This document shows positions 2,545 through 19,379 of a stretch of 40,000 bases of DNA, in pieces. The notes below the pieces were generated by a model. That model was not told where the DNA came from and ran no database searches. It saw nothing but the letters and a program-made list of their open reading frames with translations. Position 1 is the first letter of the stretch, and the number at the start of each line of letters is the position of its first letter. A program made the position numbers and the translations under genes. The stretch is from Vibrio porteresiae DSM 19223 (lineage in GTDB: Bacteria; Pseudomonadota; Gammaproteobacteria; Enterobacterales; Vibrionaceae): assembly GCF_024347055.1 (NCBI RefSeq), contig NZ_AP024895.1, positions 3,405,607-3,445,606 of the forward strand. Reading direction: 5' to 3'.

Positions 2545-3840
2545 ATGGCTTATACACTTAAAAGAAGAGTTTCTTATAAGGCTAGTGCGGCGTCTTTATC
2601 ACATAACCTTCCTGCCATCTTCACTAAGAGTGGCTTGCTGATTTCTCATTTGAGGTACTTATATTCTAACCGAGGTAAATCACCATCTTGGATGGAGAGA
2701 AATACCTTTGCGGTAGAGCTTCTTTTAAAGTTTATAGAGCGCCAAGTATCAAACTTCTCATCAGCTACAGAGTTGCTCAGAGCGTTTGTTGAAGCATTAC
2801 AGTTTGGAACAATTCAAGATGGGCAAGACAGCTCTGGGTTGTTCTGGTCGACTCGCAGAAATGAAGACGTAAATGTTCTTCTTCACCATATTACGGATTA
2901 TTGCGACTACCTCGATACAGTTTATGGAACTGACTTGCCCAAGCTAAATCCCTTAAGGAAAGCAACTCATGCAGAAGAGCGTTTGCAATGGTGTGCTTAC
3001 TACAGGAGGCACAGTCGTAGCTTTCTGAATCATTTAGCTAATCCATCCCGACAGCAATTCTCAGTTGTTAGAATGATTCGAGGGCCTGAGAGGCACCTAG
3101 TCGATATCGAAGCAGTATATCGCTTTCCAGAAAACCGAATTGAAGACTTACTGCTACATGGTTTTGTTTTTCCGTCAGGAGAACCGGATTATGCTAGCCA
3201 GTTGATTGTAATGTTGATGCATTTCGGTGGGTTGAGATTGTCGGAGTGTTTTCATATATATGTCCATGATGTGCATCTAGACCAGAAATCAGGCTCAGCT
3301 CTCATATCGGTTTTTCATCCTAGTGATGGACAGTCGCCAGATGAACGTTTCTGTAAACGAAATGAATACTTGGCTACCAAATACCGACTAAATCCAAGGA
3401 ATGAGTATTCGAGAAGCCATAGACTATATGCTGGCTGGAAAGGACCTTTGCTTACAAATCGCAACCTATCCTTTGATGTGATGTTTTATCCAGCTAGTAA
3501 AGCTGTTGAATTTACTCTGGTACTACAAAAGTACCTTGCGACTAAACCCTCTTCAGAATCTCCGTTCCTTTTTGTTAACTCAAAAGGAAATCCAGAGAGT
3601 AAAAAAAATTTCTATCAGAAGCATAATAGAGCCGTTCGTCGAATTGGACTAGAACCATCCAAGTCATTAGGGACAACCCCACACGCTCATCGCCATTCCT
3701 ACGGCTATAGATTAAGCCAAGGAGGTTTTTCTCAGCTAGAGATTCAAAAAGCGATGCACCATAAAAGCCCTGAGAGTTGCTTGGTTTATTTGAAACCTTC
3801 TGACGATGAGGTTCGTCGTCAAATGAGAGACACTCACTAA
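2545..3840 (+). CDS. Tyrosine recombinase/integrase (431 aa), first of the trio (TnpA-like)
   Basis: Tyrosine recombinase catalytic signatures are present: 'GGLRLSEC' (box I Arg), 'HAHRHSYGYRL' (H-x-x-R) and 'CLVYLKPS' (nucleophile Tyr). The stop overlaps the next start (TAATG at 3838-3842). Confidence 0.85.
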   Translation: MAYTLKRRVSYKASAASLSHNLPAIFTKSGLLISHLRYLYSNRGKSPSWMERNTFAVELLLKFIERQVSNFSSATELLRAFVEALQFGTIQDGQDSSGLFWSTRRNEDVNVLLHHITDYCDYLDTVYGTDLPKLNPLRKATHAEERLQWCAYYRRHSRSFLNHLANPSRQQFSVVRMIRGPERHLVDIEAVYRFPENRIEDLLLHGFVFPSGEPDYASQLIVMLMHFGGLRLSECFHIYVHDVHLDQKSGSALISVFHPSDGQSPDERFCKRNEYLATKYRLNPRNEYSRSHRLYAGWKGPLLTNRNLSFDVMFYPASKAVEFTLVLQKYLATKPSSESPFLFVNSKGNPESKKNFYQKHNRAVRRIGLEPSKSLGTTPHAHRHSYGYRLSQGGFSQLEIQKAMHHKSPESCLVYLKPSDDEVRRQMRDTH

Positions 3841-6800
3841 TGAAAAAGTTTTACGCAACTATAAACCAAGCAAGTAAAGCGGCGATAAGATTGGGCATTC
3901 AATCGGCACAAGAATATAAGCAGCGTTACAAAGAAGATGAGCATCTTCCCGCGAATCCAAATACGCTTTATGCCGCTGACTGGGTTGATTGGTTTAGTTT
4001 TCTGGATAAAGCGAAGCGGTCTTTATATTCGACATACGCAGAGGCCAGCGAAGCCGCGATAGGATTGGGCATTCAATCGGCGCCAGAATATCAGCAGTAT
4101 TACAAAAAAGATGAGCGTCTTCCCGCGAATCCAAATACGCTTTATGCCGCTAACTGGGTTGATTGGTTTAGTTTTCTGGATAAAGCGAAGCGGTCTTTCT
4201 ATTCGACATACGCAGAGGCCAGCGAAGCCGCGATAGGATTGGGCATTCAATCAGCGCCAGAATATCAGCAGTATTACAAAAAAGATGAGCGTCTTCCCGC
4301 GAGTCCAAATATGCTTTATGCCGCTGACTGGGTTGATTGGTTTAGTTTTCTGGATAAAGCGAAGCGGTCTTTATATTCGACATACGCAGAGGCCAGCGAA
4401 GCTGCGATAGGATTGGGCATTCAATCGTTCCTAGAATATAAGCAGCGTTACAAAGAAGATGAGCGTCTTCCCGCGAGTCCAAATACGCTTTATGCCGCTG
4501 ACTGGGTTGATTGGTTTAGTTTTCTGGATAAAGCGAAGCGGTCTTTATATTCGACATACGCAGAGGCCAGCGAAGCTGCGATAGGATTGGGCATTCAATC
4601 GTTACTAGAATATAAGCAGCGTTACAAAGAAGATGAGCGTCTTCCCGCGAGTCCAAATCAGGTTTATGCTGCTGACTGGGTTGATTGGTTTAGTTTTCTG
4701 GATAAAGATAAGCGGTCTTTCTATTCGACATACGCAGAGGCCAGCGAAGCAGCAATAGGGCTGGGTATTCAATCGTCGCCAGAATATAAGCAGCGTTACA
4801 AAGAAGATGAATGTCTTCCCGCAAATCCAAATCAAATTTATGCCGCTGACTGGGTTGATTGGTTTAGTTTTCTGGATAAAGCGCAGCGGTCTCTCTATTC
4901 GACATACGCAGAGGCAAGCGAAGCAGCGATAGGATTGGGCATTCAATCGTCCCATGAATATAAGCAGCGTTACAAAGAAGATGAACGTCTTCCCGCAAAT
5001 CCAAGTCAGGTTTATGCCGCTGACTGGGTTGATTGGATTCACTTCTTATTGCCCAGAGATATATCTAATCTAAAACAGTTCAAAACAGCATGTGCGATTC
5101 TAAGAATCAAAGACTCATCTCAATACAGAGTTACACAAAAGAACTATCCTCAATTACCCTCCAAGCCTGAAAAAAGAATACCTGACTGGAGCAATTGGTA
5201 TGACGCTCTCGATATACCAAGGCTTTATGGATATGACGAACTAGCAGCTTTGGTTCAAAGCAAAGGAGTTTGCAGCCTTGCAGAGTATGCGAAACTTCGA
5301 GCTGAATCCAATGATCCTAGAATGCCAGCAAAACCAGAAGAGAATTATCAAGGAAAGGGTTGGACTAACACCTTTGACTTCTGGGGAGTTAAACGACCGT
5401 ATCAAGTGAAATACTTTACTGATGAATGGTCTTTGTGGGCGGCGACGATAAAAGAGTTTCTCAAGTCTGCACGTGGCGGAGATACCAAAGCGAAAGACTT
5501 ATGTGAATTTGTTCGTGAATACATTGAGCCAAATGGTTTTGAAACATCCCCGTTGGAGTTTCTCACACGTGGCTCGACAAACATTCAACCAATGCTGAAT
5601 CTGTTTGAACAAGTTCCAGTGACACGAAGAAAAAAATGGGCGTTTTCAATCAATGAGTTCTTAGATTGGATTATCTCTAGTTATCTTATTTTGGAAGACA
5701 CAGAGACCGGAGAAATTACTCACATCAAGGACGCCAAAAACCCATTTAGTCACATTAATTTTAATGGAGAAACTGCGCCTCAAGTTGTCAATGAAACAGA
5801 TAAGATGGCTCTGCCTTATCAATATGTAAAAGCAGGGCGAGAGTGGATATTTCCATTAGACTCCGTAGAGAAAAAGCTAAATTATTGGGATTTAGCTCAT
5901 TTGCATCCTTTTTCATCAGACTGGGTGCAGATCAACGATAGCTCTCTCCTAGATAAAAACGACCCTGATTGCGTTTTCAAAGTTGAAAATGGGAAAACCT
6001 ATCTTTGGTTTCCAACATACTGGACCTATACGTACTCACTCATGCAACTCCCTGCAAGAGGGATGCAAATCGTCTATTGCGACTCTGGGGAGGCAGATCA
6101 AGAACTCGCCGACTTTAAGAACAATAAAGTCGTTTGGAAGAAAAATAGGACTATGTTAGCTGGCCTAACCAATCGTCAGAGCATGGTGAGTAAGTCAGGG
6201 CAAGGAGAGTTCGGTGTCCATTATACATCCAACAAAACTAAGTTTGATGGTTCAGGCTACACTATTCCCTTCATGCCCATAGAACTGGCATATTGGTTGG
6301 TAAAGCTTAGAAAGTGGCAACAGAAATATAATCCACTAAAGGAGCCAACGAAATGGCTTGATTGTGAGCGCACCAATCTAAACGAAGTTCAGCGTAAGCA
6401 AAAAGGGGCGAATTGCTTTTTATTCCGCGACTATCTAGAAAAAGAGCCAGGCACATTTAGTGGCAGACTAGCGACACGGCTTGCTGCTGCACTATATTTT
6501 TCTGCCAAGAATGATATTACAACGGCTACCTACAAAGGATTAAAATACAATCAATCGATGAAAGAATTGGAAAATAGTCAAACGATACCACTTTCACGCT
6601 TTAAATCCCCTTACACTCCACACTCAATGCGCGTCAGTTTGATCAATGCTTACGCGTATGAGTTCGGCATTCCTTTGGAAGTCATAATGAAATTGGTCGG
6701 CCATTCCAGCATCATAATGACCATCTACTATACCAAGAGCGATAAAACAGGCAGCAACTTACGAGAGAAAATGGAGTTGGGTGAAAAGGAGGCGATGAGC

Positions 6801-7817
6801 AAAGCAACGCAAACGCTCAAATCCTTTGTGGAACAGCAGAGAATTGAAGAAGTTAAATCACAGTTAGTAGGTTCATCTTTGGATCTACTAAGTTCACTCG
6901 ACAATGCTCGCCCGGCCTCTAGCTATTTATGGAAAGACTTTGGTATCTGCCCTGTAGGAGGTGCTTTTTGTTCAGAGGGGGGCATTCCTGTAGCTACCAA
7001 AGCCAACATATATCACTCTGTACCAGCAGGTTATTTGGGTGAGCAGAACTGTTTTCAGTGTCGATTTTTTATTACCGGCCCTGCTTTTTTGGTTGGACTT
7101 ACTGCCATATTCAATGAGATAAGCCTAGCCGTAAACACGCAATCTATACGTTACACTTCTCTTGAGCAGGAGATTGATAATATTGCAGAAAAGATAGATG
7201 TCATTGATCACCAACTTTACAAAATAAAAGCGGATAGCTCAGAGAAGTCTGCTCTGGAGTCTGATAGACGTAAGTTAGTTGGACAACGTATGCACTTGAA
7301 CTCGGCAATTGAAACACGAGCGAAGAAGCTAGATTTGTACCTTTCAGACATGAACGCAATTCACCGACATATACATAATTGTCAAACTCTTATGCGTAAC
7401 CCTAAAGAAAACACGGAGAATCACTATCAGCTTATTGTTCCGCATGAATTCACATTAGGTGTAGAGTTGGATGAAGTAAGCAATTTTCATCAACTATCAG
7501 AAGTGTGTTCGAATGCAGAGCTGTACCACAGCTGTAGCGACGACTTAGCGGTAACAAGACGCTCCCAAATGATCGACAAAATGATGGTCGAAAACGGTAT
7601 TCAGCCGCAACTTTTTTTACTGTCAGAAGCAGAGCAACTCTTAGTGGGGAACCAGTTAACAGAGTTGATGCTGGCAAGGTTGAAAGGCTGGGAGAACGTC
7701 GACCGTCTTATGGATGGGAGTTTGACTTTAAAGGACCTATCGATAGATAACAATTTTGATGAAAAGACTATTCGAGAATTGTTTGAGAAGTCGAAACCAC
7801 TAAAAAGGATCGGTTAG
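3840..7817 (+). CDS. Giant tyrosine recombinase (1325 aa) with N-terminal 58-aa repeat array, a Cys-rich segment and a coiled-coil C-terminus (TnpB-like)
   Basis: 'YTPHSMRVSLINAY' (H-x-x-R) and 'VGHSSIIMTIYYTKSD' (His and Tyr) indicate a tyrosine recombinase core at about aa 910-965. A Cys cluster follows: 'FGICPVGGAFCSEGG...EQNCFQCRFF'. There are seven near-identical N-terminal repeats and two degenerate ones. Confidence 0.85.
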   Translation: MKKFYATINQASKAAIRLGIQSAQEYKQRYKEDEHLPANPNTLYAADWVDWFSFLDKAKRSLYSTYAEASEAAIGLGIQSAPEYQQYYKKDERLPANPNTLYAANWVDWFSFLDKAKRSFYSTYAEASEAAIGLGIQSAPEYQQYYKKDERLPASPNMLYAADWVDWFSFLDKAKRSLYSTYAEASEAAIGLGIQSFLEYKQRYKEDERLPASPNTLYAADWVDWFSFLDKAKRSLYSTYAEASEAAIGLGIQSLLEYKQRYKEDERLPASPNQVYAADWVDWFSFLDKDKRSFYSTYAEASEAAIGLGIQSSPEYKQRYKEDECLPANPNQIYAADWVDWFSFLDKAQRSLYSTYAEASEAAIGLGIQSSHEYKQRYKEDERLPANPSQVYAADWVDWIHFLLPRDISNLKQFKTACAILRIKDSSQYRVTQKNYPQLPSKPEKRIPDWSNWYDALDIPRLYGYDELAALVQSKGVCSLAEYAKLRAESNDPRMPAKPEENYQGKGWTNTFDFWGVKRPYQVKYFTDEWSLWAATIKEFLKSARGGDTKAKDLCEFVREYIEPNGFETSPLEFLTRGSTNIQPMLNLFEQVPVTRRKKWAFSINEFLDWIISSYLILEDTETGEITHIKDAKNPFSHINFNGETAPQVVNETDKMALPYQYVKAGREWIFPLDSVEKKLNYWDLAHLHPFSSDWVQINDSSLLDKNDPDCVFKVENGKTYLWFPTYWTYTYSLMQLPARGMQIVYCDSGEADQELADFKNNKVVWKKNRTMLAGLTNRQSMVSKSGQGEFGVHYTSNKTKFDGSGYTIPFMPIELAYWLVKLRKWQQKYNPLKEPTKWLDCERTNLNEVQRKQKGANCFLFRDYLEKEPGTFSGRLATRLAAALYFSAKNDITTATYKGLKYNQSMKELENSQTIPLSRFKSPYTPHSMRVSLINAYAYEFGIPLEVIMKLVGHSSIIMTIYYTKSDKTGSNLREKMELGEKEAMSKATQTLKSFVEQQRIEEVKSQLVGSSLDLLSSLDNARPASSYLWKDFGICPVGGAFCSEGGIPVATKANIYHSVPAGYLGEQNCFQCRFFITGPAFLVGLTAIFNEISLAVNTQSIRYTSLEQEIDNIAEKIDVIDHQLYKIKADSSEKSALESDRRKLVGQRMHLNSAIETRAKKLDLYLSDMNAIHRHIHNCQTLMRNPKENTENHYQLIVPHEFTLGVELDEVSNFHQLSEVCSNAELYHSCSDDLAVTRRSQMIDKMMVENGIQPQLFLLSEAEQLLVGNQLTELMLARLKGWENVDRLMDGSLTLKDLSIDNNFDEKTIRELFEKSKPLKRIG
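3849..5040 (+). repeat. Seven tandem 174-bp (58-aa) in-frame coding repeats
   Basis: The period was measured from recurring 'ctttatattcgacatacgcagaggccagcgaagc' at 4021, 4195, 4369 and onward. The unit is (F/L)YSTYAEASEAAIGLGIQS.(P/L)EY(K/Q)Q(R/Y)YK(E/K)DERLPA(N/S)PN..YAA(D/N)WVDWFSFLDKAKRS. The copies are very similar at the DNA level. Confidence 0.95.
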
Positions 7818-7818
7818 C

Positions 7819-8442
7819 ATGTCAACAATTACTCCTGATCAAGTTCTGAATCAACTAAAAAAGAAAGCCTCACCTCGAGTACAAAACTCACTAGAGGCAG
7901 TGTTCACCATATGCAAGGAACAACAAGAACGTGGATTGAATGACTTTAGCTATTCCACGATAGCCCGCCTTGGAAAAGGGCGAGGAGTTCCTGCGGCACA
8001 AAGTATCCGAAACAAAACCGGTGAATCGTACCGAACCTTAATTGAAAGCTTCAACTCTTCAACAAAAGACCAACCAAAGCCAGCACGAAACACCTCAAAA
8101 GGTAAGATGCACGCTTGGATAGATGAATTAGAAGACCCAGTAGTTAAACTTCAAGCCAACATTCTCTATGCGCAAAAAAAAGAAGCAGAACGACTACTTA
8201 ATGAAATAGTGCCAATCAACCAGGTCATTGAAGTGTTCGATAACGTCGATGTCTCTGTTGCGTCGATTAAGCTCACTGAGCTGGAAAGAAGCGCATTGGA
8301 GTACCTCATTTCTAGTGAGTTTTTACGTAGACATCAATTGGAGGTTGGAAAAAATGGCAGTATAGTTTCGAGTGATACTCAAAAGTCTTTTTTCCGTGTT
8401 GCAACCATCGATGCAATCAAAAAGGCGCTAAAAAACTTATAG
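7819..8442 (+). CDS. 207-aa recombinase-operon accessory protein (TnpC-like position)
   Basis: It starts 2 nt after the stop of the 1325-aa gene and has no catalytic motif I can see. Position and size fit the third gene of Tn554-type trios. From memory, RefSeq names similar triplets 'gamma-mobile-trio' GmtX/Y/Z; this is unverified. Confidence 0.55.
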   Translation: MSTITPDQVLNQLKKKASPRVQNSLEAVFTICKEQQERGLNDFSYSTIARLGKGRGVPAAQSIRNKTGESYRTLIESFNSSTKDQPKPARNTSKGKMHAWIDELEDPVVKLQANILYAQKKEAERLLNEIVPINQVIEVFDNVDVSVASIKLTELERSALEYLISSEFLRRHQLEVGKNGSIVSSDTQKSFFRVATIDAIKKALKNL

Positions 8443-8460: not shown

Positions 8461-8937
8461 GTGAAAACAAAACTAATCACCAGAGAAGGTTACAACAAAC
8501 TGAAAGCTGAACATGACCACTTATGGAATGAAAAACGACCTGAAATTACTAAAATTGTAACTTGGGCTGCAAGCTTAGGTGACCGCTCTGAGAATGCTGA
8601 TTACACCTTCAATAAGCGTTTACTTCGCCAGATAGATAGGCGAGTCCGGTTTCTAAGAAAGTTTTTACCTGAAGTAACCGTTGTTGATTACTCTCCTCAA
8701 CAAGAAGGTAAAGTGTTTTTCGGAGCCTGGGTCGAAATTGAAAATGAATCCGGTGATGTGATGAAATTTCGTATTGTTGGTCCAGAAGAAATCTATGGGG
8801 GCGCTAAAAATTATATATCTATTGATTCCCCAATGGCGCGAGCGCTCTTGAAGAAAGAAGTTGATGACGAGTTTACCGTTCAGACTCCTGATGGGGATAA
8901 AGAATGGTTTATCAACTCAATTACATACGAAAAATAA
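8461..8937 (+). CDS. greB: Complete island-borne transcript cleavage factor GreB (158 aa, GTG start)
   Basis: It is full-length and collinear with E. coli GreB: 'TREGYNKLKAEHDHLWNEKRPEITKIVTWAASLGDRSENADY...DYSPQQEGKVFFGAWVEIEN...ISIDSPMARALLKKEV'. It lies 18 nt downstream of the trio, on the same strand. It differs from the resident greB at many synonymous sites. Confidence 0.9.
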   Translation: MKTKLITREGYNKLKAEHDHLWNEKRPEITKIVTWAASLGDRSENADYTFNKRLLRQIDRRVRFLRKFLPEVTVVDYSPQQEGKVFFGAWVEIENESGDVMKFRIVGPEEIYGGAKNYISIDSPMARALLKKEVDDEFTVQTPDGDKEWFINSITYEK

Positions 8938-16972: not shown

Positions 16973-17344
16973 ATGGAGTGTGTCTTAAAATCGCCTAAGA
17001 TTAGGTTGGCTGTGACATTATTTCTCACGATTGTGATAGGAGTTTTTTCTAGCTTATTTGCTACAGAAATAACACCAAATGGGATTGTTGAATGGAATAG
17101 AACATTTAAGACGTATTCTTTTTGGATATTGATAATATTAAGTATCATTTGGTTATGGATACATATTAATTTGATGGAGTATGATAATAGTATATTGGCT
17201 TTTTCTGATGATGAATATTGTAAGGCTTACATGAGAAAAGCTCAGCTTGAAGCATATGTATTAAATATTAAAGAAAATCCCAAAGAAGTAAATACTATGG
17301 AGTTGAATGAATTTAAATCAAAGTTGGAAGGATATAAAAAATGA
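16973..17344 (+). CDS. Two-TM membrane protein with a C-terminal amphipathic helix (123 aa), first gene of the AT-rich operon
   Basis: AGGAG lies about 12 nt upstream. The TM helices are 'LAVTLFLTIVIGVFSSLFA' and 'YSFWILIILSIIWLWIHI'. The stop overlaps the next start (ATGA at 17341-17344). Confidence 0.6.
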   Translation: MECVLKSPKIRLAVTLFLTIVIGVFSSLFATEITPNGIVEWNRTFKTYSFWILIILSIIWLWIHINLMEYDNSILAFSDDEYCKAYMRKAQLEAYVLNIKENPKEVNTMELNEFKSKLEGYKK

Positions 17345-17607
17345 GTGTTTTGGTTTCCAGTAAATTTGCCGATGAGTTACGTGGTTATAAACTAGATTCG
17401 CAAGTTTCTGAAATTTTCAGTTTATTAGAAAACATGGATTATAATAGTCCTTCGCAAATGCATAACGTAAAGATTATAGACGGTGAAAAACAGTCAATAT
17501 ATGTTTTAAAACATAAAAACTGGAGGGTTTTCTTTACTAAACAAGAAAATGACATTGTATTATTAAGCATCACAGATAGTAAAGTGATAAGACATTTCAA
17601 TGGATAA
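17341..17607 (+). CDS. Small RelE/ParE-fold-like protein (88 aa)
   Basis: 'IYVLKHKNWRVFFTKQENDIVLLSITD' resembles the RelE/ParE core pattern (l)YrlRvGdyRviY.i.d..i.il.i. It is preceded by a helical segment. It is translationally coupled to the upstream membrane protein rather than to a soluble antitoxin. Confidence 0.45.
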   Translation: MSVLVSSKFADELRGYKLDSQVSEIFSLLENMDYNSPSQMHNVKIIDGEKQSIYVLKHKNWRVFFTKQENDIVLLSITDSKVIRHFNG

Positions 17608-17713
17608 ATATAGTATTCTTGGTTTTAAGTTACTTAATTATTGCAATGTTGGTATTTATGCACCATTGAATTATACGTGATAGGGAACATCCTTGAATGG
17701 AGTAGCATTGAAT

Positions 17714-18127
17714 ATGGAAAATAAAAAAGTAAAATGGCTGATTTACACTGTTCTAGTGGGGCTGATTCCTATCCTATCAAGGATATTTGTCTGGAGTGTC
17801 ACTGAGGTTGGGGTAGTCAGTTTAATAATGCCAGCAGACTTTATTGCTTTTGGTTTAATTTTACATATTTCTAATATCAATGAAATTGAACATCTAACAG
17901 ATGATGAAAAATCGTGGAAAACTATTCAAAATGGAACCTCTATAGCCTTCATTGCTTTTTATAGCGTTTTATTTTCATTGATAATGATAAGTGAGAGTAT
18001 TCCAAACTTGATAGACATGGGAGCAATCAAATTTTGCACTATAGGTTTATCTGTGGTCTCTTTTTTAATTAGTTTTTCTGTATTCCATAGAATTTCGAAA
18101 ATTGCAGCTAATGAGGTAACAGTATAA
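17714..18127 (+). CDS. Four-TM membrane protein (about 138 aa)
   Basis: The helices are 'WLIYTVLVGLIPILSRIFVW', 'VVSLIMPADFIAFGLILHI', 'SIAFIAFYSVLFSLIMI' and 'FCTIGLSVVSFLISFSVF'. The ATG at 17714 has GGAG 11 nt upstream; the track starts at a TTG at 17693. Confidence 0.6.
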   Translation: MENKKVKWLIYTVLVGLIPILSRIFVWSVTEVGVVSLIMPADFIAFGLILHISNINEIEHLTDDEKSWKTIQNGTSIAFIAFYSVLFSLIMISESIPNLIDMGAIKFCTIGLSVVSFLISFSVFHRISKIAANEVTV

Positions 18128-18258
18128 TGGTTACTACAATTATAATTGCATTAACTTTGGTTATGGTCTTTGTTGGTATTTCCACTGTTGTCTGGTCAAT
18201 AATTAATACAAGAAATAAATTTTACGAAGAATACAAGGCAAGGAATAAAAATAAATGA
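18127..18258 (+). CDS. 43-aa single-TM peptide
   Basis: The ORF is below the track threshold, so I translated it myself: MVTTIIIALTLVMVFVGISTVVWSIINTRNKFYEEYKARNKNK. Its start overlaps the upstream stop (TAATG). Its stop overlaps the downstream start (ATGA at 18255-18258). This double coupling argues that it is translated. Confidence 0.5.
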   Translation: MVTTIIIALTLVMVFVGISTVVWSIINTRNKFYEEYKARNKNK

Positions 18259-19196
18259 TAAAGAATTTTATATACTTAGACGAAGATAAAATGTATTCAT
18301 TATCATCTCAAATATTTGAAGGGATAACTGAATATGTTTTAAATGAAAGCTCTTCAGATAATCAAGAAAGTGAGACTCAAAAAGGCCCAGTAGGAAGTGG
18401 TAAGGTTTTAGCTGATGTAATTATTTCAAGTAGTAAGGCAACTGAGAAAAAGTTTTTTCATGACTACTCATTTACATTATTTGAAAATCATCTAATGGAG
18501 CAAGGCCGGGTTTTAGATCTAACAAGTGCAACACTTTCTTTAGAAGATCTTAAAGCATCCATTACTGACTTTTCTTTTATAAAAACAAAAGCTAAGTCAA
18601 CATTTAATGATGTGAATAAAATAACTGAGTTATTTTCCGAGTTTAATACGATTGGTGAAGCACTAGCACATATGGGAGCATTTTCCCGAATTAACGAACT
18701 AACTTCCGAGCTTGCATTGTTGAAGAAGCAAACACCAGATAGGAATAAAAGATCCCAACTCGAAGCTGAGTATAAGAAACTAACTAACCTCAAAGAATTA
18801 GCTAAAGCTGGCAGCCTTTATCAAGATCAAAAGTTTTTAGATAACTTAAGTTTATTAACTAAATATGGTTTTTCGGATCAATTTGAAATAACGCAACCTA
18901 TCGGCGAGGCACTTTTTACTTCATGTTTAAAACGTGATTTTCTGAGGGAGAGTGAGGATATATTAGTTAAAAAATATTCTCGAAAAACTGAAAAGAAAGT
19001 TGTTATCTTCGGAATAATATCTCAAGCATTTTCAGGTAATGAAATGGAATTAGATGAAAAAGGTAAAGATTATTCAAACATGAAGGCTGCACTGTTAAAC
19101 CTTGTCGATCATTTAACTAACATTGAACATTCTATTTCCGGAAAGCAAGAAAATGAAGTCGTCATTGATCCCATAGCCGTCTACTTTGAAGTGTAA
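18255..19196 (+). CDS. 313-aa soluble protein of unknown function, last gene of the AT-rich operon
   Basis: It is a long ORF in about 30% GC DNA with no TM segment. The N-terminus is 'MIKNFIYLDEDKMYSLSSQIFEGI' and the middle is coiled-coil-like ('LTSELALLKKQTPDRNKRSQLEAEYKKLTNLKELAK'). I recognise no catalytic motif. Confidence 0.7.
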   Translation: MIKNFIYLDEDKMYSLSSQIFEGITEYVLNESSSDNQESETQKGPVGSGKVLADVIISSSKATEKKFFHDYSFTLFENHLMEQGRVLDLTSATLSLEDLKASITDFSFIKTKAKSTFNDVNKITELFSEFNTIGEALAHMGAFSRINELTSELALLKKQTPDRNKRSQLEAEYKKLTNLKELAKAGSLYQDQKFLDNLSLLTKYGFSDQFEITQPIGEALFTSCLKRDFLRESEDILVKKYSRKTEKKVVIFGIISQAFSGNEMELDEKGKDYSNMKAALLNLVDHLTNIEHSISGKQENEVVIDPIAVYFEV

Positions 19197-19267
19197 TGCC
19201 TATAACAACCGATCAATGTATCAGCATACTTTTCCTAACCTGACAGAAACTCTTTAATGCGATTGTT

Positions 19268-19291
19268 CTAAACGGTTTCTGTCCATTTCCG
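19268..19291 (+). repeat. Cassette-boundary repeat, copy C (core only)
   Basis: 'ctaaacggtttctgtccatttccg' shares the core AAACG(n)GTTTCTGTCCAyTTyCG with copy B. Confidence 0.55.
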
Positions 19292-19379
19292 AGTTAAATT
19301 ATGGATTTTCTGCCTGTGATCACCAAGCGATTCTGTCGTACCTTGGCCGTGGTTAATTGTGTTTTGTTTAAGTGAAAAT

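Follow-up and report, generated by a model that had tools for sequence, protein, structure and literature searches.

Dodola, a defense system reportedly described by Millman and co-workers in 2022, is said to consist of two proteins, DolA and DolB, of which the first is reportedly a DUF6414 protein. In a review the DolA family is given as DUF6414 and its partner as ClpB-like, and Dodola is listed as an experimentally validated system of unknown mechanism that is active against the Bacillus phage SPP1 (PMC11514479). Other described systems that bear on the locus treated here are lambda RexAB, Kiwa (KwaA, with four transmembrane (TM) helices, and KwaB, a DUF4868 protein), and Rst_2TM-1TM-TIR of the P2-like phage AC1, a three-gene cassette whose TM proteins are presumed to be the effectors (Rousset et al., 2022; PMC9122126). 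In Vibrio phage K139 the slot between cI and int of the PL lysogenic operon is filled by orf2-glo, with glo annotated as “involved in phage exclusion” (PMC4870250), and a recent survey identified the integrase-primase interval as a minor defense hotspot of P2-like phages (PMC13586616). Here we compare these systems with a group of five genes at 16973-19196 of a 40,000-nucleotide (nt) stretch (the window) of Vibrio porteresiae DSM 19223 (contig NZ_AP024895.1, positions 3,405,607 to 3,445,606), which an initial annotation had presented as one five-gene operon of a membrane-targeting abortive-infection or exclusion system. Comparison with other loci indicates that this “five-gene operon” is instead two unrelated, independently conserved modules lying side by side: module A (16973-17607), encoding proteins of 123 and 88 amino acids (aa), p123 and p88, and module B (17714-19196), a trio encoding a 4-TM protein, a 43-aa 1-TM peptide and a 313-aa DUF6414 protein. 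The best explanation of the region as a whole, to which we give a somewhat better than even chance, is that module B is a phage-exclusion or abortive-infection cassette with RexAB-like logic and that module A is a separate pair.

An alignment-driven scan, taking one genome per species, yielded 40 loci, and another 21 loci came from phages and prophages. No match to the 123-aa, 88-aa, RexA or RexB proteins of the window was obtained in these 40 genome loci or 21 phage/prophage loci with DUF6414. The p123/p88 pair was seen three times in metagenome loci (L079-L081), each time without the trio. The relatives at the DNA level are both Halomonadaceae: blastn aligned the window with the copy of Vreelandella (L001) at 90% identity over 17676-19200 and with that of Salinicola (L002) at 87% identity over 17676-19208, without homology outside these limits, and the shared DNA begins downstream of the 88-aa gene. 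The idea that all five genes form one operon-encoded defense system, with a sensor and a RelE/ParE-like protein next to three membrane proteins, had in its favor the same strand, tight packing, a G+C content of 0.29-0.32 throughout, and flanks formed by two copies of a junction repeat. Moreover, a search of the 106-nt gap between the modules revealed no convincing terminator or promoter, the single sigma-70-like match in the spacer (17708-17735) being weak and not above chance. However, with homologs of p123 and p88 absent from all 60 trio-bearing loci, the pair recurring on its own elsewhere, and the DNA homology to other hosts starting 3′ of p88, this idea is largely refuted and now seems extremely improbable. 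Tight packing and a common base composition are evidently insufficient to define an operon-level system; it was the comparative loci that divided the candidate in two.

On the same comparative grounds, module B is a self-contained, widespread and horizontally mobile three-gene cassette that is often prophage-borne. In 39 of the 40 species-level genome loci its genes keep one order and overlapping stops and starts, the DUF6414 gene being directly preceded by that of a 4-TM homolog. The check for co-occurrence of this sub-module, proposed in the initial annotation, thus gave a positive answer, the trio being kept as a set in ~60 loci. The hosts belong to at least eight phyla (Gamma-, Beta- and Alphaproteobacteria, Campylobacterota, Bacteroidota, Ignavibacteriae, Poribacteria, Chloroflexota, Gemmatimonadota, and Cyanobacteria), and the DUF6414 scan also returned one archaeal fragment. 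The trio occurs in the 21 phage/prophage loci as well, where the 4-TM gene is present in every viral locus with upstream sequence. The sole genome locus without a recognizable 4-TM homolog upstream of DUF6414 is that of a Sulfurovum metagenome-assembled genome (L032, 1300-3650), which has several different small TM open reading frames (ORFs) in that position and may represent a variant partner set. Across locus pairs, the identity between 4-TM proteins correlates with that between DUF6414 proteins (r = 0.85 over 1485 pairs); the two genes are, therefore, passed on and diversify together. No conserved fourth gene was encountered: none of the Pfam families occurred more than three times among 144 neighbor proteins of 39 loci, and the flanking genes of the compared loci are all unrelated. 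In all 13 other hosts checked, the G+C content of the trio is 10-30 points below that of its flanks (e.g., 0.34 vs. 0.60 and 0.40 vs. 0.70).

The 313-aa protein, listed as an unknown in the initial annotation, is a full-length member of DUF6414 (PF19952; E 5.9e-26, profile positions 1-283 of 283), a family that the phage homolog also matches (E 4.6e-24) and for which homologs were found in 509 clusters. The 313-aa sequence is 100% identical to the NCBI entry for V. porteresiae. The protein is acidic and soluble; a helical hairpin occupies its center, and its C-terminal part is alpha/beta. Its AlphaFold2 model (predicted local distance difference test (pLDDT) 71.8) shows an alpha/beta body and a long helical hairpin at 120-206, in line with the central coiled coil that had been noticed before. 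The N-terminal segment is strongly conserved (Y7, L8, D9, K12, S15, S17, S18, Q19, E22, G23, T25, and the motif QKGPxGSG); residues 1-66 combine a low model confidence (pLDDT <50) with the most conserved sequence. “QKGPVGSGK” was considered as a Walker A motif and rejected: the lysine alternates with arginine, no serine or threonine follows, and the glycines are not invariant. A Foldseek comparison of the model with PDB and BFVD gave nothing with an E value below 0.02 and no significant match. The top non-significant matches were repeatedly OB-fold binders of nucleic acids (OBody, Stn1-Ten1, the N-domains of AspRS and LysRS, and MCM; E 0.3-2, probability ≤0.3). Sequence profiles searched against PDB returned coiled-coil noise only.

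For the 4-TM protein 627 homologs were found, with W8, Y11, T12, G16, P19, R23, D42, G47, and E57 among the invariant residues. It contains a conserved loop, HISNINEIEH...SWKTIQNG, which is predicted to be cytoplasmic since both termini of the protein are predicted to lie inside the cell. Its AlphaFold2 model (pLDDT 83) consists of four long helices and gave generic helical bundles only in Foldseek, with no similar solved structure. The sole sequence hints are sub-threshold matches to SLATT families from two libraries, i.e., SLATT_5 (E 0.49) and RTasSLATT, the latter in four of 30 members (best E 0.0025) and located on TM3-TM4. A 1-TM ORF of 35-64 aa that overlaps both flanking genes is present in 56 of the 61 loci, and tblastn detected the peptide in at least 26 loci. 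It has the consensus W-S/T-x-I-D-T-R-K/R-K-Y-Y-x-E-Y-x-x-R-K-R. In V. porteresiae the 43-aa gene is translationally coupled to both of its neighbors, and the NCBI annotation of the genome (L041; CP138203) omits it, as do those of several other genomes.

Database searches with these proteins returned few further matches. NCBIfam had nothing for the trio proteins, and the only PHROGs matches were phrog_9699 and phrog_16607, both families of unknown function. PADLOC-DB 2.0, which detects RexA, RexB, beta, and cII of the surrounding genomic island and includes the Rousset systems as well as Dodola, Kiwa, Rex, and Rst models, matched none of the three trio proteins of the window, with no family at E ≤1 for the 313-aa protein, and gave no consistent match among 58 DUF6414 members or 30 4-TM members. 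The Foldseek and PADLOC checks that had been suggested thus yielded no known system or structure for the trio proteins tested. A literature search produced a single paper with “DUF6414” and none with “DUF2178.”

Of the described systems, Dodola shares a protein family with module B: the large protein belongs to PF19952, the family reported for DolA, and both are small multi-gene cassettes on mobile DNA whose mechanism is unknown. The initial annotation had been unable to match the system to a named family, which holds as far as PADLOC models and structures are concerned but not for DUF6414 as the reported DolA family. Module B differs from Dodola in that it lacks a ClpB-N-like DolB, in the place of which there are two upstream membrane proteins (4 TM and 1 TM), and in that its hosts are mostly Gram-negative or marine bacteria and their prophages. 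A DolB-like partner was not found, as no Clp family recurs among the 144 neighbors of the 39 loci and, in the window, the DUF6414 gene is preceded by the genes for the 43-aa and 137-aa TM proteins and followed by the end of the island.

The resemblance to lambda RexAB is one of architecture and position. Both combine a soluble protein of ~300 aa with a 4-TM protein of ~140 aa, the trio lies directly downstream of cI in the lysogenic operon of prophage relatives, and in both a cytoplasmic sensor would gate a membrane effector. However, module B has its membrane protein encoded first, the opposite of the RexAB order, and there is an additional, obligatory 1-TM micro-protein. The RexAB pair of the island lies 1.1 kb upstream. 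Homology of the trio to RexA/RexB was tried and rejected: in hhalign the 4-TM protein reached a probability of 5% with RexB and the 313-aa protein one of 0.2% with the island RexA, and in Pfam and PADLOC the 313-aa protein did not match RexA (PF15969), nor the 4-TM protein RexB (PF15968). With Rst_2TM-1TM-TIR module B has in common that it is a cassette of P2-like prophages with two small TM proteins and one soluble protein. It differs in that the soluble protein is DUF6414 rather than TIR (no TIR match in Pfam or PADLOC) and in that it is located between cI and int, whereas the Rst system occupies the Z/fun-tin-old hotspot. K139 orf2-glo occupies the very same PL-operon slot, bounded by cI and int, in P2-like phages of Vibrio. 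Orf2 and Glo were rejected as homologs of the trio, these being unrelated proteins (Orf2 has a BRCT match and Glo is periplasmic).

As homology yields no mechanism, we infer the function of module B from its context. In the deposited P2/186-like Vibrio phage 10N.286.54.E4_PE001 the gene order is cI, 4-TM, 1-TM, DUF6414, int, with a gap of only 10 nt between cI and the 4-TM gene, and in at least nine P2-like prophages from IMG/VR the trio likewise lies between cI and int, all on one strand. In Vibrio harveyi CP154264 (L049, 1-11000) a PM2-like corticovirus prophage (P2_N/P2_C capsid, REP_ORF2-G2P) carries it at its edge, as does a Pf-like filamentous/inovirus prophage (Zot, Coat_B) in Ectopseudomonas toyotomiensis CP070505 (L077, 900-11000). 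The trio is, therefore, common to three very different temperate-phage families. In Vibrio vulnificus it adjoins an integrase. Elsewhere, it sits in small islets beside HigB, HipA, or ParE toxin genes, and scattered among its neighbors are defense genes, i.e., type ISP/IIG restriction-modification, MADS, AriA (PARIS), PtuA (Septu), NsnB, DndC, and PD-T4-4, along with housekeeping genes. In the window the trio shares one island with RexAB and gop-beta-cII, in agreement with the RexAB-like and Gop/Beta-like modules noted earlier. The SLATT hints, the cI-int placement, the K139 slot, the hotspot, the RexAB and gop-beta-cII neighbors and the link to the Dodola family together favor a role in exclusion or defense, and module B most likely belongs to the type of phage-exclusion or abortive-infection system that is expressed from prophages in lysogeny. 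The initial idea of a membrane-based exclusion or abortive-infection system is thus supported by context (mobility, P2-, PM2-, and Pf-like prophages, cI-int slot) for the trio, but not for the set of five genes.

We envisage that the 4-TM and 1-TM proteins would form a small membrane complex, and that the DUF6414 protein would dock on its cytoplasmic face via the invariant N-terminal segment; the lack of structure of this segment in the monomer model fits what would be expected of a docking segment. The DUF6414 protein would be an infection sensor or switch that controls the membrane complex and, upon infection, may open or rearrange the membrane component, with collapse of membrane integrity or a block of the incoming phage as the result. 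Such logic would be similar to that of lambda RexA/RexB, without homology to either. In a more specific form, to which we would assign slightly less than an even chance, the trio would be an unnamed, widespread anti-phage “membrane Dodola” of temperate phages (P2-, PM2-, and Pf-like) and islands, in which DUF6414 is a modular sensor that is wired either to a ClpB-like partner or to a SLATT-like membrane complex needing the 43-aa micro-protein.

The main rival wiring follows the logic of Kiwa or of superinfection exclusion (Sie): the membrane proteins would sense or obstruct the entry of phage DNA, and DUF6414 would be a cytoplasmic effector, e.g., one that binds nucleic acids, so that exclusion proceeds without host death. 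The membrane-associated combination of a 4-TM protein with a soluble protein of ~310 aa indeed parallels KwaA/KwaB, and prophage cargo between cI and int is classically superinfection exclusion, as for K139 glo. DUF6414 of Dodola pairs with a non-membrane partner and could, consequently, equally be the constant effector. The repeated OB-fold matches of the DUF6414 model are the lone hint in favor of this wiring, yet they are non-significant. No DUF4868/KwaB or KwaA match was found in Pfam or PADLOC, nor a PDB match in Foldseek, and module B, unlike Kiwa, has a third, 1-TM gene. In known defense systems small TM proteins generally act as effectors, a role for the membrane proteins that the weak SLATT signals also suggest here. 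We thus consider the Kiwa-/Sie-like wiring unlikely, though it deserves to be kept in mind.

Two further explanations do without a primary role in defense. Module B could be an addiction (toxin-antitoxin-like) cassette that stabilizes mobile elements, made up of a membrane toxin and DUF6414 as antidote or the reverse. This would suit a strongly AT-rich, mobile and autonomous cassette with the tight translational coupling known from toxin-antitoxin operons, copies of which reside on prophages and islands and beside the HigB, HipA, and ParE genes mentioned above. However, three components, including a highly conserved 313-aa protein, are atypical of a simple toxin-antitoxin system, no copy was found in 72,556 plasmids, where addiction modules abound, and exclusion cargo is the better explanation for genes placed immediately behind cI in lysogenic operons. 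Since toxin-antitoxin and abortive-infection roles can coexist, addiction need not stand in opposition to defense, and as the primary role we hold it to be improbable. Alternatively, module B could be lysogenic-conversion cargo with a non-defense role in the envelope or membrane, for instance in stress response or surface modification. In its favor, membrane proteins make up two of the three products, housekeeping genes surround some of the copies, and no defense model was matched. Against this, no transporter, glycosyltransferase, GtrA, or other envelope family was detected, the trio is patchily distributed and horizontally transferred over at least eight phyla with a strongly deviating composition, the DUF6414 family is tied to Dodola, and the trio is here co-located with RexAB and gop-beta-cII. 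An envelope role, therefore, appears very improbable to us.

A number of observations weigh against interpreting module B as a phage-exclusion or abortive-infection cassette. Many genome copies are located among housekeeping genes in small islets that are not clear defense islands. The copy in the window is part of an island and does not follow cI, and no promoter was recognized for it. No homology of the trio to any protein of known mechanism was found. The Dodola, Kiwa, Rex, and Rst models of PADLOC 2.0 matched none of the 58 DUF6414 members and none of the 30 4-TM members, and Foldseek revealed no solved or viral structure like the DUF6414 or 4-TM protein. The link between DolA and DUF6414 is taken from the statement in the review. 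Finally, the assignment of sensor and effector roles among the components of the trio is a guess.

Module A has a much narrower distribution. For p123 we found three metagenome relatives with 33-38% identity, all of which share the DDEYCKAYMR motif; it matched no Pfam, NCBIfam, or PADLOC family, and a search of plasmids and phages gave nothing. In each of the three metagenome loci a p88-like ORF follows the p123-like gene with an overlapping stop and start, so that the pairing holds in four out of four occurrences, the window included. The ORF of L080 aligned with p88 in hhalign with a probability of 93.6% (E 2e-7). In L079 (~1010-1136) and L081 (~1040-1301) the p88-like frame has no stop and enters 24-nt (8-aa) tandem repeats, NPRYNNLI and NPNFNTSL, respectively, that extend to the contig end. 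Approximately ten relatives of p88 were found among 1.8 billion representatives; a k-mer protein search gave nothing, and a search with p88 found no loci of its family in metagenomes and viral contigs. The initial annotation had called this protein RelE/ParE-like, for which there is some support in weak matches, all of them sub-threshold. The match of p88 to ParE_toxin (E 0.0048) reaches 17.9 bits against a cutoff of 23, six of the 11 members of its family have weak ParE_toxin matches (best 5e-4), and in PDB there are weak full-length matches to YoeB (E 0.6-1). The family has the pattern IYVLRH..LRVFFT..DNDxVLLSI, and no C-terminal catalytic region like that of RelE can be made out in p88. These sequence features point to a divergent, C-terminally short RelE/ParE-like fold. 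Module A thus resembles type II toxin-antitoxin systems of the RelE/ParE kind in having a downstream protein of ~85 aa with weak ParE_toxin and YoeB matches in a conserved overlapping gene pair. It differs from them in having, upstream, a membrane protein with two TM helices in place of a soluble DNA-binding antitoxin and in that all matches are below the family thresholds. Module A is probably a toxin-antitoxin-like or defense pair in its own right, whatever its action.

The five ORFs lie on the + strand, with coordinates as given before (Table 1), and the overlaps were confirmed as ATGA (17341-17344) between the 123-aa and 88-aa ORFs, TAATG (18125-18129) between the 4-TM and 43-aa ORFs, and ATGA (18255-18258) between the 43-aa and 313-aa ORFs. 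The spacer behind the 88-aa gene measures 85 nt up to TTG 17693 or 106 nt up to ATG 17714. The 4-TM protein, previously put at ~138 aa, keeps its four helices but not its start: because all homologs start with MENKK, the start is set at ATG 17714, preceded by GGAG 11 nt upstream, giving 137 aa (MENKK...), and the ORF from TTG 17693 is an over-extension. Hydropathy predicts two TM helices for the 123-aa, four for the 137-aa and one for the 43-aa protein and none for the 88-aa and 313-aa proteins, the same as in the initial annotation. The G+C content, estimated earlier by eye at about one-third, was computed as 0.31 for 16973-19196, compared with 0.39 for the island and 0.46 for the core genome, and the 500-nt windows at 17001-18500 (0.29-0.30) are the minimum of the 40 kb.

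Table 1. Features of the two modules and their borders (positions in the window)
Feature	Position	Strand	Description
Module A, gene 1	16973..17344	+	123 aa; 2 TM helices (12-30, 50-68); cytoplasmic helical tail with DDEYCKAYMR
Module A, gene 2	17341..17607	+	88 aa, soluble; divergent RelE/ParE-superfamily candidate
Spacer between modules A and B	17608..17713	none	Left edge of horizontally shared DNA at 17676
Module B, gene 1	17714..18127	+	137-aa 4-TM inner-membrane protein, predicted N-in/C-in
Module B, gene 2	18127..18258	+	43-aa 1-TM micro-protein with basic cytoplasmic tail; overlaps both neighbor genes
Module B, gene 3	18255..19196	+	313-aa soluble DUF6414 protein
Horizontally shared mobile unit (module B only)	17676..19208	+	Delimited by blastn; G+C 0.32
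Left “boundary repeat”	16685..16760	+	AACGGCTTTTGTCCA plus degenerate hairpin; related to the elements at 10522-10590 and 14860-14930
Right “boundary repeat”	19271..19330	+	AACGGTTTCTGTCCA..., just within the right island end

All five genes are situated at the right-hand end of a genomic island of ~17 kb that is inserted inside greB. The chromosomal greB gene is split into its N-terminal 49 codons (19618-19472, - strand) and the C-terminal remainder (~2200-1870, - strand), with the right junction of island and greB at ~19472. An intact greB of 158 aa is carried by the island itself (8461-8937, + strand), apparently as a replacement for the split chromosomal gene. At the left end of the island there are three consecutive genes of the tyrosine-recombinase type (2545-8442), a set that resembles a tyrosine-recombinase-trio mobile element. 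One of these recombinases, of 1325 aa, contains seven INT_rpt units, encoded by 174-nt tandem repeats (3870-5039), in addition to Integrase_2. Two overlapping ORFs occupy 9296-10323: the first, of 180 aa, belongs to no known family, and the second, of 163 aa, is confined to the N-terminal ResIII/DEAD helicase motif region; this helicase fragment may be the remnant of a truncated defense gene. The gop(M78/CapP-like)-beta-cII system is located at 12357-14808, with the position of “gop” taken by an M78/IrrE-type peptidase whose top PADLOC match is CapP (1e-24), and the RexA/RexB pair, true RexAB according to both Pfam and PADLOC, at 15099-16590. Copies of a related junction element, 60-80 nt in length, lie between the island's cassettes at 10522-10590, 14860-14930, and 16685-16760 and, in a weaker form, at 19271-19330. 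The element is made up of AACGGYTTYTGTCCA, a hairpin CGTTTCAGCCAGCTCTGGCTGAAACG, and then TGCCCCA..ATCAT.CAG. These elements presumably are the boundary repeats of the initial annotation and may serve as terminators or as sites of regulation or recombination.

If the proposed role is correct, module B would be a common, currently unannotated defense cassette, with more than 500 protein clusters in at least eight phyla and several temperate-phage families. It would also provide a second, contrasting set of partners for the DUF6414 protein of Dodola, and a comparison of the two may reveal what DUF6414 senses or does. The trio contains a further example of a conserved micro-protein that has been overlooked by genome annotation. 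The slot between cI and int of marine P2-like prophages would then be a place to seek exclusion genes.

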